Shown here one piece after another: positions 3,710 through 14,225 of a DNA stretch of 25,160 nucleotides. The notes under the pieces were generated by a model. The model worked only from the letters and a program-made list of their open reading frames with translations, was not told the origin of the DNA and ran no database searches. Every line of letters begins with the position of its first letter. The stretch's first letter is position 1. Source of the DNA: a virus (Duplodnaviria; Caudoviricetes); IMG/VR virus record IMGVR_UViG_3300032216_000888, positions 1 to 25,160 of that record, one strand, 5' to 3'. The position numbers and the translations under genes were made by a program.

Positions 3710-4279
3710 GTGAACATCCCTGCACAGATCACTGCTGGCGACACCGTGAAATGGCGGGACGTTGCGACCAAGGACAACCTTGGCAACGTGATCGATAGCA
3801 GCGCCTGGACGCTGACCTATTACCTGCGGACCAATACAGCAAGCGAAGGCGCGACGGCAGTGGCCGCGGCCTATGGCTCCGGCTGGGAAACAACGTTGAG
3901 CGCGGCGACGACAGCAGCTTTTGATGCTGGGCATTGGTTTTGGCAAGCGATCGCAACCAAGGCAAGCGAAAAGCTGACCCTTGGTGCTGGTCAACTGGAT
4001 GTCAGCGCTGCGCTCAATTACACGGGCACTCCCGGTGCATTTGACGGTCGGACTCAAGCGCACAAAGATTTGGACGCGGTGGACGCTGCAATCCGCGCCA
4101 TCGTCAGTGGTGGCGTGGTTCAGGAATACACGATCGGCAATCGACGGCTGAAGAAATACGATCTGACCGAGTTGCAGGTGCTGCGCTCTAGGCTGATTGC
4201 TGAGGTGAAGCGTGAACAGGCCGCGGCTTCGGTTGCGCAAGGTCTCGGCAACCCCCACAACCTCTTCGTTCGGTTCTAA
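3710..4279 (+). CDS. Head-tail adaptor (gpW-like C-terminal domain) with extra N-terminal domain
   Basis: Sits between terminase and portal. C-terminal helix-hairpin-helix pattern (AIRAIVSGGVVQEYTIGNRRLKKYDLTEL) resembles gpW. Confidence 0.7.
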   Translation: MNIPAQITAGDTVKWRDVATKDNLGNVIDSSAWTLTYYLRTNTASEGATAVAAAYGSGWETTLSAATTAAFDAGHWFWQAIATKASEKLTLGAGQLDVSAALNYTGTPGAFDGRTQAHKDLDAVDAAIRAIVSGGVVQEYTIGNRRLKKYDLTELQVLRSRLIAEVKREQAAASVAQGLGNPHNLFVRF

Positions 4280-5790
4280 TGGGCGTCCGATCTGCTATTC
4301 GCGAGCTGTTCAGCCGCACCGAAACGCCGATGCCAGCGCCACGGCGGCGGATGTTTGAAGGTGCCCGCACCAGCCGACTGACGGCTGACTGGGTGACAAG
4401 CGCCAGCAGCGTTGACGCTGAGATCCGATCGAGCCTGTATGCGCTGCGCAATAGGGCGCGGCAACTCTGCCGGGATTCGGACTATGCCAAACAGGCGCTG
4501 CGGGCAATTGCCAGCAACGTGGTTGGCCAAGGGATTCCGTTTCAGGCGCAGGTCAAACAGCAGCGCGGCAACCGTCTGAATACGCCGGTCAACGATCAGA
4601 TAGAGCAGCTTTGGGCGAAATGGAGCCGCGCTAAGTATTGCCACACGGCTGGCAAGCTTGGCTTTGCGGATATTGAGCGCCTGCTGGTGCGCAGCGTGGC
4701 CGAGAGCGGCGAGGTGCTGGTGCGAATGGTGAAGCAGCCATTTGCAGACTCCCCGGTGCCGATGGCTTTGGAGGTGCTTGAGGCTGATCTGCTTGATGAT
4801 CGGTACAACGGCAAGGTGGCCAGCAACGGCAACGAAGTTCGCATGGGCGTCGAGCTGGATAAGTGGCACCGGCCGGTGGCGTACTACTTCCTGCCGCGTC
4901 ATCCGGGCGACTACACCTTCAGCAACTCGACGCCGGACAATTATCTGCCGCGCACGCGGGTGCCGGCGGATGAAGTGATCCATCTATTTCTGACGGAGCG
5001 GCCTGGTCAGACCCGTGGCGTGAGCTGGTTTGCGTCGGCTATCAAGCGGCTGCATCACCTGAGCGGATATGAAGAGGCCGAGGTGATCCGCGCTCGGGCA
5101 TCGTCGGCGCTCATGGGTTTTATCACCAGCCCAGAGGGCGAGCTGCAAGGCGATGAGGTGCTCGATGGTGAGCGCGTCAGTTCGTTTGAGCCTGGTGTCT
5201 TCAAGTACCTGGCGCCTGGCGAGTCGGTCAGCGTGCCCCAGTTGGATGCTCCTGATGGGCAGTTCGAGCCGTTCATACGCGCCATGCTGCGTGCGGTTTC
5301 GGCTGGCCTTGGTGTTTCGTATGAATCAGTCAGCCATGATTTCAGTTCAACCAACTACAGCAGCAGCCGATTGAGCTTGCTGGAAGAGCGCGATACCTAC
5401 CGCCAGCTTCAGGCATGGATGATCGAAAGCTTCCACCAGCGCGTGTTTGAAGCATGGCTCGACATGGCGGTGCTGAGCGGCTCATTGGATCTGCCCCTCT
5501 ATGACCTGGACCCCGATCGCTACCGGCAGGTGCGGTGGATGCCGCGTGGCTGGGCATGGGTTGATCCGCAAAAAGAGGTGGAGGCGTACAAGGCCGCCGA
5601 GCTTGCTGGCTACATCACTAAAGCCGAGGTCATCGCTGAAAACGGTGGCGACATCGAAGATGTCTTCACGCAGCGACGCCGCGAGCTGGATATGGCCGAG
5701 CAGTTGCAGCTCTACTTCGACACCAACTTCCAGCAGCCTCAAATACCGGCGCCCCAGCCGGATCAACCCCCAGCTGGTTCTGCGCCATGA
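4279..5790 (+). CDS. Portal protein, lambda family
   Basis: LRNRARQL, SGEVLVR, GVELDKWHRPVAYY, RPGQTRGV, NYSSSR and WVDPQKE motifs. Confidence 0.96.
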   Translation: MGVRSAIRELFSRTETPMPAPRRRMFEGARTSRLTADWVTSASSVDAEIRSSLYALRNRARQLCRDSDYAKQALRAIASNVVGQGIPFQAQVKQQRGNRLNTPVNDQIEQLWAKWSRAKYCHTAGKLGFADIERLLVRSVAESGEVLVRMVKQPFADSPVPMALEVLEADLLDDRYNGKVASNGNEVRMGVELDKWHRPVAYYFLPRHPGDYTFSNSTPDNYLPRTRVPADEVIHLFLTERPGQTRGVSWFASAIKRLHHLSGYEEAEVIRARASSALMGFITSPEGELQGDEVLDGERVSSFEPGVFKYLAPGESVSVPQLDAPDGQFEPFIRAMLRAVSAGLGVSYESVSHDFSSTNYSSSRLSLLEERDTYRQLQAWMIESFHQRVFEAWLDMAVLSGSLDLPLYDLDPDRYRQVRWMPRGWAWVDPQKEVEAYKAAELAGYITKAEVIAENGGDIEDVFTQRRRELDMAEQLQLYFDTNFQQPQIPAPQPDQPPAGSAP

Positions 5791-6170
5791 TTCCCCCCGA
5801 CCGTTCTACCAATCCGGCCGCAGCCGAGTTTTTTATTACGCTGCTTCATGCCGCCACCAGCGGCCATGTCCTGCATTTGCAGACCCGGAGCTTTGCGCAG
5901 CACAAGACGCTGGATGATTTCTACAGCTCGCTGCCCGGCTTGGTCGATGATGTGATCGAGGCGTACCAGGGCAAGTACGGCTTGGTGCTGGATTATCCCA
6001 GCGGTTACACGGTGCCGATCACGGCGCCGATCGATTTCGTCAGTGCGCTCAGCGATTACGTCATGAGCACTCGCGCTAGCGTGGCATCAGATTCCGAAAT
6101 CCAGAATCTCGTCGATGAGATTCAGGATCTGATCGACTCGACCCTTTACAAGCTGAGGTTCCTGGCATGA
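5787..6170 (+). CDS. Dps/ferritin-like four-helix protein (DUF5856-like)
   Basis: HLQT.SFAQHKTLDDFY..L..LVDDVIEAYQG. H39/D43/D54/E58 have the +4/+11/+4 spacing of Dps ferroxidase ligands. ATGA overlaps at both ends. Confidence 0.8.
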   Translation: MIPPDRSTNPAAAEFFITLLHAATSGHVLHLQTRSFAQHKTLDDFYSSLPGLVDDVIEAYQGKYGLVLDYPSGYTVPITAPIDFVSALSDYVMSTRASVASDSEIQNLVDEIQDLIDSTLYKLRFLA

Positions 6171-8317
6171 ACCCGACCGGAGTGAACCAACGGGATCTCA
6201 ACGATGACATGGGTGCCCGTCAAACATTGATGCACCAGGCCCTTGAGGACGTGGTGGATGAGCTGGGGCAGTTTGACCAAACCATCGGAGACGACGGCGC
6301 TCACTACATGGGCCCGGATAAAAACGTTTTTGCTGCCCAAGGAATGCAGTGCTCGAACTGCGTGTTCTTCGAGGGTGGTCGCGCATGCGAATTGGTGCAG
6401 GGTGACATTGATCCGGCGGGGCTTTGTAAGCTTTGGATTATTCCCGAGACATTGCTTCCCGCTGACATGACGGAACCTGCTGGCGAACTTCCAGAGCGTG
6501 CCGCCAAGGCAAAGACCTTACGCCGCAATGAGGCGGTGTTGTTCGAGCGTGCCGCCGATGGCGAGGACAACCTCACTTACACCTTCCCGTTCAGCTCCGA
6601 GTATCCGGTGCAGCGGTACTTCGGCAACGAAGTCCTGAGTCACGACCTTGGCGCTGCTGATCTCAGCCGCATGAACGATGCCGCGCCGCTTCTTTGGAAT
6701 CACGACACCAACAAGGTCATCGGTGTTGTTGAGCGTGCTTGGATTGATGAGCAACAAAAGCGCGGTTACACAACTGTGCGGTTCAGTCGTAATGCGTTCG
6801 CCCAGGAAATCCTGGCGGACGTGCGTGATGGCGTACTGCGCAACGTCTCGTTCGCGTACTCTGTGGATAACATGGAGGAGCGCAGCGGCAACTTCGTGGT
6901 GACCAAATGGACGCCTTACGAAGCTTCAATCGTGAGCGTGCCCGCCGACAACTCTGTCGGAATTGGGCGTTCTCTCGACGCTGAACCCGCGGCCACCGCC
7001 GCAACACAACCCCAACCAGAACCAGAGGTTCACATGGAATCCACCCCTGATTTGTCAGTGGTGCGGGCTGAAGCGGCTGAGGCCGAGCGCAGCCGCATCT
7101 CCGGCATCACTGCCCTTTGCAGCAAGCACGGCATGTCTGATCTTGCTGGCGAACTCGTTCGCGGCGGCAAAGACATTGACGCAGCCCGCGCTGCTGTGCT
7201 GGAGCGCATCGGCTCCAAGCAACAGCCTGTGCGCGAGGTTTCTGACCTCGGCATGAACGAAAAGGAAGTTCGTGACTTCTCCTTCGTTCGCGCCATCAAC
7301 GCTCTCGCCAACCCCACCGATCGCGCTGCCCAGCGGGCTGCTGCTTTCGAGTTCGAGGTGAGCGAAGCTGCTGCTGCTCATTACGGCAAGGACAACCGCG
7401 GCATTACCGTGCCGATGGATGTGCTCAAGCGTGACTTGACGGTTGGCACCGCCACTGCTGGTGGTAACACCGTTGCAACCGACCTGCTGGCTGGCGATTT
7501 CATTACGCTGCTGCGTAACCGCGCCGTGATCATGGGTCTTGGCACCCGCGTCATGACCGGCCTGCAAGGCAACGTGGCTATCCCCCGCGCCACGGCCGCT
7601 GCAACCGCTTACTGGGTTGCTGAGTCCGGCGCACCTACCGAAAGCCAGCAGGCTTTTGATCAGGTGACCCTGAGCCCCAAAACTGTTGGTGCTTACACGG
7701 ACATCAGCCGCAAGCTGCTGCTCCAGTCGTCCCTCGACGTGGAAAGCTTCGTGCGTGATGACCTTGCCACCGTGCTTGGTCTGGAAATCGACCGCGCTGC
7801 CATCAACGGCTCCGGTTCTTCCAACCAGCCCACCGGCATTCTTCAGACCTCAGGCATCGGCTCCGTGGCCGGCGGCACCAACGGTGCTGCTCCCAGCTAC
7901 GCCAACATCATCGACCTGGAATCCCAAGTCGCTGTGGCCAACGCTGACATGGGCAGCCTCAGCTATCTGACAAACCCCAAGGTTCGCGGCAAGCTGAAGG
8001 GCACCTTCACCAACAGCACCTACGGTGAGATCCCCATCTACGGCGCTGACAACACCCTGAATGGCTACGGCGTCGCCGTGACCAACCAGGTGCCTTACAA
8101 CCTTACCAAGGGTTCTGCCTCCGGTGTTTGCTCCGCCATCATCTTCGGCAACTTCGCCGACCTGATGATCGGCATGTGGGGTTCGATCAGCCTGATGGTT
8201 GATCCTTACACCTCCAGCACCAGCGGCACCGTCCGCGTGGTCGCTCTCCAGGACATCGACATTGCGGTTCGGAACGCTGTTTCCTTCGCCGCCATGAAGG
8301 ACGCCCTGACCACCTGA
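6167..8317 (+). CDS. Capsid polyprotein: HiPIP-like Cys4 domain + HK97-type prohead protease + scaffold/delta domain + major capsid protein
   Basis: C62/C65/C74/C87 motif, protease signatures (FSSEYPV, LLWNHD, RNVSFAY, YEASIVSVPAD), helical scaffold region, then HK97-fold MCP motifs (AYWVAES, ISRKLLLQS, IIFGNFAD). Confidence 0.93.
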   Translation: MNPTGVNQRDLNDDMGARQTLMHQALEDVVDELGQFDQTIGDDGAHYMGPDKNVFAAQGMQCSNCVFFEGGRACELVQGDIDPAGLCKLWIIPETLLPADMTEPAGELPERAAKAKTLRRNEAVLFERAADGEDNLTYTFPFSSEYPVQRYFGNEVLSHDLGAADLSRMNDAAPLLWNHDTNKVIGVVERAWIDEQQKRGYTTVRFSRNAFAQEILADVRDGVLRNVSFAYSVDNMEERSGNFVVTKWTPYEASIVSVPADNSVGIGRSLDAEPAATAATQPQPEPEVHMESTPDLSVVRAEAAEAERSRISGITALCSKHGMSDLAGELVRGGKDIDAARAAVLERIGSKQQPVREVSDLGMNEKEVRDFSFVRAINALANPTDRAAQRAAAFEFEVSEAAAAHYGKDNRGITVPMDVLKRDLTVGTATAGGNTVATDLLAGDFITLLRNRAVIMGLGTRVMTGLQGNVAIPRATAAATAYWVAESGAPTESQQAFDQVTLSPKTVGAYTDISRKLLLQSSLDVESFVRDDLATVLGLEIDRAAINGSGSSNQPTGILQTSGIGSVAGGTNGAAPSYANIIDLESQVAVANADMGSLSYLTNPKVRGKLKGTFTNSTYGEIPIYGADNTLNGYGVAVTNQVPYNLTKGSASGVCSAIIFGNFADLMIGMWGSISLMVDPYTSSTSGTVRVVALQDIDIAVRNAVSFAAMKDALTT

Positions 8318-8326
8318 TAAGGAGCC

Positions 8327-8354
8327 GGGGGCGGGCAACCGCCCCCCTTTTTTT
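8327..8354 (+). terminator. Rho-independent terminator after the major capsid gene
   Basis: GGGGGCGG-GCAA-CCGCCCCC hairpin (GNRA loop) followed by T7. Confidence 0.9.
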
Positions 8355-8357
8355 CTC

Positions 8358-8534
8358 ATGATCAAAGTTCTCTTTTTACGCGACACCGTTGCCGCCTTCC
8401 AGGATGTGGAAGCTGGCCAGGTGATGGAGCTTCCTGATCAGGAGGCGAAGTATCTGATTGCGATCGGCAAGGCGACTGCTGAGCTGCCAGCACCCAAGCC
8501 TGCCCGAAAGGTGAAGGCCGATGGCGCTGAGTGA
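8358..8534 (+). CDS. Small 58-aa head-associated protein (not in ORF track)
   Basis: MIKVLFLRDTVAAFQDVEAGQVMELPDQEAKYLIAIGKA...KPARKVKADGAE. Fills the gap after the capsid gene (the gpFI position) and overlaps the next start. Confidence 0.75.
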   Translation: MIKVLFLRDTVAAFQDVEAGQVMELPDQEAKYLIAIGKATAELPAPKPARKVKADGAE

Positions 8535-13176: not shown

Positions 13177-13512
13177 ATGGCGACCTTCACCTACACACCC
13201 AGCTTTGAAGCCACCGAGAGCAGCAAGCCTCGGGCGCATAAGTTCCAGGCCGGCGATGGCTACGAACAGCGCGTGCGGTTCGGGCTTAATACGGACCCAA
13301 AGGAATGGACGCTGACCTTTTCGGAGCGCACCAACACTGAGCGTGACAACATCCTGGCTTTTCTGGAAGCGCGTGCCGCCGTTGAGAGTTTCGATTGGAC
13401 CCCGCCGCGTGGCAGTGCTGGCAAATACTTATGCGAGGAATGGCAGGTGACCATGCGGGCTTACAACTTCAACACAATTCAAGCGACGTTTAGGCAGGTC
13501 TTTGAGCCATGA
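13177..13512 (+). CDS. Minor tail protein M (distal tail)
   Basis: [35 protein letters not shown]. Confidence 0.92.
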   Translation: MATFTYTPSFEATESSKPRAHKFQAGDGYEQRVRFGLNTDPKEWTLTFSERTNTERDNILAFLEARAAVESFDWTPPRGSAGKYLCEEWQVTMRAYNFNTIQATFRQVFEP

Positions 13513-14225
13513 GCGTTCCGGTTTCAGAGCTTCAGTCAATTGCACCCAGCGCGATCATCGAGCTGTTTGAGTTGCAGCTCAATACGGCGATCCAGGGGAC
13601 CAATACGCTTTACCGTTTCCATGCTGGCGTCAATCTCACGGGCAGCAACGGTGATGTTGTGTGGGCCGGCAATACCTACGCCAAGTTTCCGATTGAGGCC
13701 GAGGGCTTCGAGTACAGCGGCAACGGCCAGCTGCCGCGGCCAAAAGTCAAGGTTTCAAACATTCTGGGCACTATCACAGCGATCATCCTGACGACGCCTC
13801 TGGAAGGCGCAAAGGTGACCCGGATCCGCACCATGGCGCGGTATTTGGATGCTGTGAACTTTTCGGGTGGTGTAAACCCGTATGGAACGCCAGACCCTAC
13901 AGCTAGTTTTCCCGCCGAAATTTTTTATATCGACCGCAAGTCTGCCGAAACCCGCGACGTGGTGGAGTTTGAGCTTGCGGCTGCATTTGATTTGCAAGGC
14001 GTCAGGGCACCAAAGCGCCAGTGCATTTCCAACATTTGCCAGTGGGTCTATCGCTCAACCGAATGCAGCTATACCGGCACCAACTACTTCACCGAGAACG
14101 ACGTGGCCACCACCTTGGCTAATGACGTTTGCGGCAAGAAACTAAGCAGCTGCAAAGCTCGGTTTGGCTCAACGGCGCAATTGCCTTTTGGCTCCTACCC
14201 AGGCGTGGGCACTTATTTCACATGA
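13509..14225 (+). CDS. Minor tail protein L
   Basis: [24 protein letters not shown], and the C-terminal Cys cluster [18 protein letters not shown]. Confidence 0.94.

Follow-up and report, generated by a model that had tools for sequence, protein, structure and literature searches.

The 25,160-base stretch of tailed-phage DNA analyzed here (the window) encodes a head polyprotein that opens with a small four-cysteine domain, the cassette, which, as judged from sequence profiles and a predicted structure, is a remote homologue of HiPIPs with a HiPIP-derived fold. We put at about one in two the probability that it is a mobile domain that binds a cluster, is borne into the procapsid, is cut free at arginine sites and is delivered with the DNA as an internal passenger. 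The parts of this reading documented below are the HiPIP homology, the invariant cysteines and tyrosine, purifying selection, shuffling, the arginine junctions and the fusion to head proteins.

Genome setting and extent of the cassette

The window carries a lambda-like late operon in which a terminase, the portal gene (4279-5790) and a DUF5856 gene (5787-6170) precede the ORF of interest (6167-8317, + strand), and a connector, lambda-type tail genes, a lysozyme, a dCTP deaminase and an integrase follow it. The ORF encodes 716 aa and reads over its whole length as a cassette-protease-scaffold-capsid polyprotein: ~110 residues that fall in no family are followed by an S78 protease, a scaffold and an HK97 capsid protein, with phrog_617 matching from aa 113. 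The S78 (HK97-type) prohead protease spans 6527-6970 (+; aa 151-262; Pfam PF04586, E 8.7e-11), and H179, S228 and E252, which we take to be its catalytic residues, are invariant in all 21 aligned relatives. The delta-like scaffold region (7034-7432, +) begins at Met290, and the HK97-fold major capsid protein (7430-8317, +; aa 432-711; PF05065, E 7.9e-51) is preceded by a predicted maturation site, R422/D423-L, at 7430 (+). The first-pass annotation had called the product a capsid maturation protease; the protease assignment agrees with PF04586, and the name is too narrow for an ORF that also holds the scaffold and a PF05065 capsid protein. The same cassette-to-capsid fusion is found on two independent contigs (L001 and L002) and in two further proteins (P0003 and P0004). 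All 33 locus polyproteins have a Met-Glu pair 135-149 aa ahead of the point where the capsid begins, and Met290 may be an internal start that yields the scaffold-capsid portion alone. This candidate start, at window position 7034, has no Shine-Dalgarno sequence, nor is one conserved ahead of the internal Met among the locus polyproteins compared; the DNA upstream of it is pyrimidine-rich in relatives. Among cultured phages, the nearest protease-capsid proteins come from Synechococcus phages S-LBS1 (49.7%) and S-CBS1/S-CBS3, which hints weakly at a picocyanobacterial host.

The cysteine codons start at 6350, 6359, 6386 and 6425, giving C62-x2-C65-x8-C74-x12-C87 of the ORF, with the Tyr47 codon at 6305 and the Trp90 codon at 6434; the peptide first quoted for 6299-6448 (+) matches this translation exactly. 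A loose pattern, C-x2-C-x6..17-C-x11..15-C, matches only the cassette among the 21 window proteins, and this pattern arose in one of 2000 shuffles of those proteins; the arrangement is not due to chance. The four cysteines of the original motif stand, and its extent does not: the conserved domain begins ~35 residues earlier, with an N-terminal helix. From sequence, alignment, model and homology, we place the cassette at 6200-6457 (+; aa ~12-97), comprising the helix (aa ~17-33), G34, Y47, the four cysteines and W90. Two further features had been described correctly, namely the missing signal peptide (none was found in the N terminus of the ORF) and the P/E/A-rich linker between cassette and protease (6458-6526, +), in which R111 and R119-R120 are predicted cut sites separating the two. 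Ahead of the cassette, R9-D10-L11 (6191-6199, +) is a predicted protease cut site whose tripeptide is identical to that of the capsid junction. Comparison with the two independent contigs gives 30 synonymous and four nonsynonymous changes in the cassette (dN 0.02, dS 1.0), and the domain is under purifying selection. The cassette family is acidic, with a median net charge of -5.5.

Relation to HiPIPs and spread of the family

HiPIPs are bacterial electron shuttles that Tat exports to the periplasm and that use a [4Fe-4S]3+/2+ couple at +50 to +500 mV. A profile built from 33 domain sequences (A1), run against PDB sequences, placed HiPIPs in the top four positions (PioC, E 7.4e-4; 3h31, 0.0026; 1hpi, 0.011; 1isu, 0.043), and hhalign against four cellular HiPIPs gave 97.3% (E 2.4e-11) with the tyrosine in register; MAFFT aligned Y47 with the HiPIP tyrosine for only two of the four. 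The AF2 model of the cassette has a pLDDT of 88. In a VIA structure search of 48,161 chains with this model, eight reached Z ≥ 2. The top seven are HiPIPs (PioC best, at Z 4.9 with an rmsd of 2.4 over 49 aa), and the eighth is a benzylsuccinate synthase small subunit, itself HiPIP-like. Foldseek against the PDB returned HiPIPs in 15 of 17 rows, the best at E 0.41 and none at E ≤ 0.001. The Pfam HIPIP model (PF01355) scores the window domain at 13.8 bits against a gathering cut-off of 22 bits; it matched 18 of the 33 profile members, and its gathering score was passed by only two of 106 carriers, both double-copy proteins, by summing. No single homology score is strong, and the ranking is consistent across weak scores. 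The HiPIP likeness proposed at first pass is thus upheld by sequence-profile, profile-profile and structure comparison alike, the structural match being one of consistent identity and weak scores. Disintegrins, level with 3h31 in a nonsignificant single-sequence PDB search, and a copper-ATPase were considered and rejected as having only a Cys pair in common with the cassette.

The short HiPIPs (PioC of Rhodopseudomonas palustris, 6xyv; R. tenuis, 1isu; R. marinus, 3h31; and Iro, NF041615) share with the cassette the C-x2-C-x8-C-x12-C spacing, which in PioC is identical (Cys 22/25/34/47; PMC7462912), as well as the upstream Tyr, an aromatic residue after Cys2, V/I-x-G-x-I-x-P-x-G before Cys4, Trp at Cys4+3 (in the subfamily of the window only) and the predicted fold. 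Unlike them, the cassette lacks a Tat signal and the Trp at Cys4-1, falls beneath the Pfam cut-off, and has an extra N-terminal helix, an invariant Gly and a fusion into phage head proteins. A twin-arginine pattern occurred in none of 148 representatives and none of 120 short proteins, and no hydrophobic stretch was seen in them; a Tat signal can be made out by simple inspection in cellular HiPIPs from two loci (L261 and L262). The Trp at Cys4-1, described as well conserved among HiPIPs (PMC7462912), is absent from all 152 sampled copies and replaced by Leu in the window cassette. This residue helps shield HiPIP clusters, and its loss counts against a canonical HiPIP; taken with the missing Tat signal, it points to a HiPIP fold that is not a canonical HiPIP. 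We nonetheless consider that the cassette probably binds a [4Fe-4S] cluster.

The domain belongs to a large family that is almost only viral. With the window domain as query, 269 of 273 IMG/VR candidates were related stretches; a divergent family member as query gave 435 of 439, and another member 15 of 18. By the A1 profile, the domain is carried by 873 short proteins among 4838 candidates, and the family comprises 872 clusters at 50% identity. A pattern-based scan of 185,579 prokaryote genomes yielded three hits, all from short MAG contigs, plus a partial match of 20 residues, while a single record among 50,697 GenBank phage records has the domain, within a capsid maturation protease; the four ESM Atlas clusters listed are 95-100% viral. 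PHROGs, when searched, had no family for the cassette domain, and in UniProt one family member, A0A6J5M9J5, bears an automatic HiPIP-profile label.

Conservation was assessed on 365 domain hits, reduced to 152 at 90% identity with few gaps. The four cysteines (whose conservation in homologues had been set beforehand as a test of the motif), one glycine and the HiPIP tyrosine (Y47) are kept in 152 of 152 copies and the 2-8-12 cysteine spacing is exact in 149, in a sample from which degenerate copies could be missed because it was selected by a Cys-rewarding profile. Two subfamilies are distinguished by their tryptophan: the first, to which the window belongs, has Trp at Cys4+3 (50/50), and the second has Ala there and Trp three residues ahead of the Tyr (102/102). 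Both co-occur in 29 of 186 loci. For the second subfamily, the AF2 model is poor (pLDDT 53), the profile search of the PDB ranked PioC (E 0.12) beneath chance proteasome rows, and hhalign against cellular HiPIPs gave 94.2% over the Cys core only. Of the 56 branches in a domain tree by host type, two were starred; most of that tree lacks resolution. Tandem stand-alone genes, one per subfamily, occur in L042 and L046-L056 (e.g., L053:5535-6252); a Y/N-W-L-x-E leader opens both tandem genes and is present in 72 of 120 short members. Possibly this is a capsid-targeting leader and the tandem pair a heterodimer.

The conservation data also bear on whether a HiPIP-derived fold might now bind a single metal such as zinc, forming a structural knuckle that supports a binding surface and has no redox role. 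C-x2-C pairs often bind zinc, the Trp before Cys4 has been lost in 152 of 152 copies, and no redox partner was seen in the inspected loci. We regard this alternative as unlikely, given a cysteine spacing that equals that of PioC in 149 of 152 copies, the invariant HiPIP tyrosine, the aromatic residue after Cys2, a Trp that is always at one of two positions, and strong fold neighbors that are all [4Fe-4S] proteins.

Shuffling, arginine junctions and carrier proteins

The best 150 of the 872 clusters gave 148 new identifiers, 117 of them at least 200 aa long, and 106 of these long carriers were scanned. A head protease is present in 48 (32 S78, 10 XkdF and 6 ClpP/S49), the domain lying before S78 in 18 carriers and after it in 14. 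Other partners are a portal protein (one), zeta-toxin-like proteins (five) and ADP-ribosyltransferases (five, one beneath the cut-off); 29 of the 106 had no Pfam match, and MuF was not found among them. BFVD shows the same range of partners. Carriers that are not proteases adjoin portal or terminase genes in four loci (L057, L072, L212 and L215). The domain also occurs alone, in short stand-alone genes, and in the inspected loci L049, L053, L202 and L224 such copies lie outside recognizable head genes.

These data weaken the first-pass suggestion of a redox sensor on the protease. A redox or Fe-S sensor, or a pro-domain controlling the protease, would fit the head protease found in 48 of 106 long carriers, and T4 gp21 is reported to be blocked by its own N terminus (PMC9958956). 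However, the domain occurs in only nine of the 74 loci listed among the 80 closest by protease and is absent from most close relatives whose protease is 66-74% identical; roughly half of the scanned long carriers have no protease domain, and the cassette is also found on nonproteases and alone. Moreover, it can lie on either side of S78 and also accompanies ClpP/S49 proteases, whose fold is different; in all it is joined to three protease kinds of two unrelated folds, and other cassettes often intervene before the protease. We rank protease control as the least likely of the explanations weighed here, and very improbable.

Shuffling is most evident in the region ahead of the protease, compared in 41 nonredundant polyproteins (from 103, in a collection enriched for carriers). 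This region holds four unrelated cassettes in 15 arrangements, and none in five of the 41; the HiPIP-like cassette is present in 18. On a protease-plus-capsid tree of 37 rows, four polyproteins having been dropped for a short capsid, well-supported branches force at least four gains or losses. The other pre-protease cassettes, seen across L087-L160, are a W-A-A-W-G-G-D module (phrog_2859-like), a P-Y-P-N-E-H module with no Pfam name and an Hva1-type TUDOR. A second Cys-rich cassette, of C-G-N-C type, is found at L081:1164-1898 and in the C-terminal parts of the L169 and L186 carriers and seems to co-occur with the HiPIP-like domain. In GenBank, the C-G-N-C cassette of phage DSL-LC01 (WJZ48512) is labeled "high potential iron-sulfur protein"; we rejected WJZ48512 as a family member, since it is a different Cys-rich protein, with no Pfam, PHROG, NCBIfam or PDB match, and the paper on this phage makes no mention of a HiPIP-like domain.

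Arginine recurs at the cassette borders. R-[ED]-[LM] precedes the HiPIP-like cassette in 18 of 18 polyproteins, Arg precedes two other cassettes in 19 of 19 and 18 of 18, and the capsid start has R-D-L in 38 of 41 and Arg in 41 of 41, against an Arg background of 7.7%. Among unrelated carriers, the choice of Lys or Arg before the HiPIP-like cassette agrees with that before a second cassette in 22 of 31 pairs (p 0.033); TUDOR junctions gave no signal (6 of 10 pairs agree), and a version of the first test over a narrowed interval gave 21 of 24 (p 2e-4), with the interval chosen post hoc and 20 of 44 proteins dropped. The junction counts share ancestry and are not independent, and the cut sites are predictions from sequence. 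The HK97 capsid protein is cleaved at K103/S104 (PMC10275583), which would be the equivalent of the capsid junction in the window. The proposal that cleavage leaves a cargo domain behind in the head thus gains indirect support, from a shuffled cassette with arginine junctions like that of the capsid, its cleavage step being a prediction.

Proposed fate of the cassette in the head

According to the favored passenger reading, the [4Fe-4S] cluster would be loaded in the cytoplasm by the host ISC/SUF machinery, much as HiPIP clusters are described as being loaded there before export (PMC7462912). The polyprotein would then co-assemble into the procapsid, the cassette being carried in by the capsid fusion, and the head protease would cut at R9, R111 and R119-120 to release an acidic protein of ~11 kDa (pI ~4). 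The freed cassette would be retained in the head, ejected with the DNA, and act early in the next host; our working guess is an electron-exchanging or host-protein-binding accessory, like other head-borne effectors. The Met that is conserved where the scaffold begins points to a scaffold-capsid product made separately. The copy number of the cassette could then be close to that of the protease, reported as ~60-90 per HK97 and D3 head (PMC12749128), rather than one per capsid subunit.

Retention and delivery are favored because fellow cassettes include enzymes that act in cells and because T4 and polyvalent proteins provide precedents. In T4, the internal proteins IPI-III and Alt are nonessential passengers of the prohead that gp21 processes by trimming, and IPI is injected (PMC9958956). 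They share with the cassette its nonessential character and the processing predicted for it, and they differ in having a capsid-targeting leader and separate genes, whereas the cassette is fused to the protease-capsid chain, has a predicted Arg/Lys site and is an acidic fold that probably holds a metal cluster. A link to interior head proteins (48 proteases and one portal among 106 carriers) and variability among relatives, by which a passenger may be recognized, are both found for the cassette. Effector domains on portal, MuF and head peptidase proteins have been proposed to be packaged (PMC9503650, PMC5512222), and these polyvalent and MuF-, portal- or protease-fused systems consist, as here, of shuffled head-protein domains (PMC5512222, PMC9503650, PMC5576092), with ADP-ribosyltransferase and zeta-toxin-like kinase partners common to both. 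In contrast to those effectors, the HiPIP-like cassette is not an enzyme, and the scanned carriers include no MuF. HiPIP or iron-sulfur terms do not appear in the main text of PMC5512222 or PMC9503650, and our search of titles and abstract openings, mostly outside subscription journals, found no published HiPIP-like phage-head domain.

Against the favored reading are the acidity of the domain and the stand-alone copies away from head genes in four inspected loci. The heads of HK97 and D3 shed their scaffold, and Prohead 2, once purified, is described as cleaved capsid protein only (PMC12749128), so that freed cassette pieces may likewise leave the head. The cassette might then be cut off and lost or degraded with the scaffold, acting late in the producing cell as an iron sink or electron carrier, the fusion serving only high late expression. 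The release of scaffold and protease in HK97 and D3 (PMC12749128) and the existence of stand-alone genes, some away from head genes, are consistent with this scenario; the partners, however, are overwhelmingly interior head proteins, low-copy ones such as the portal included, and not just abundant late proteins, and we judge it rather improbable. Another alternative keeps the freed Fe-S domain in the head as a redox sink that shields the packaged DNA against oxidative damage in sunlit, oxygenated water, with no delivery. HiPIP clusters are described as buried and shielded (PMC10879576), the best cultured capsid matches are Synechococcus phages, and a ferritin/Dps-like gene lies directly upstream in the window. 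That gene accompanies the domain in only four of 186 loci, on two contigs, though, an acidic domain would be a poor DNA binder, and fellow cassettes include enzymes meaningful only inside a cell; a protective sink therefore seems unlikely.

A more specific form of the passenger reading, which we hold as doubtful, has tailed phages of aquatic habitats turning the HiPIP electron carrier into a redox-active [4Fe-4S] miniprotein. Tens to hundreds of copies would enter the head, be released by the protease and reach the host along with the genome. The virion would in that case supply the infected cell with an electron carrier of its own as well as iron, and the two subfamilies that differ by the Trp swap, which often stand in tandem, would serve as carriers with different potentials. 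A large virus-specific HiPIP branch that lacks export and is fused to capsid proteins would, if the passenger reading is true, be the first head-interior Fe-S passenger that we found in print, adding a redox cofactor to the list of virion cargo; the known virion cluster, that of gpL, sits at the tail tip. For annotators, "HiPIP" labels in viromes are likely to denote structural-module cassettes rather than genes for iron oxidation or photosynthesis.

Lambda gpL carries a [4Fe-4S] cluster in the virion (PMC10721106). It resembles the cassette, as proposed here, in being an Fe-S protein of unknown function in a siphovirus particle (PMC10721106) and differs as a fixed tail-tip protein of another fold, the cassette being optional, mobile and head-linked. 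The window phage encodes a gpL homologue (13509-14225, +) with C-terminal cysteines (177, 186, 208 and 215) spaced like the lambda ligands, so that Fe-S proteins of two kinds may be present in its virion.

Several other features of the window lie close to the head genes. The ferritin- or Dps-like gene at 5787-6170 (+; DUF5856/phrog_858), between the portal and protease-capsid genes, is present in only the two nearest contigs, which suggests a recent insertion; a coupling of the cassette to this gene was rejected on the basis of the four co-occurrences in 186 loci. Right behind the capsid stop, a GC-rich hairpin followed by a T-run (8320-8352) resembles a terminator, and a short unlisted ORF (~8358-8530) lies between this hairpin and the head-closure gene. 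Just ahead of the small terminase, a ParB-like domain is fused to an N6/N4 DNA methylase (77-1348, +).
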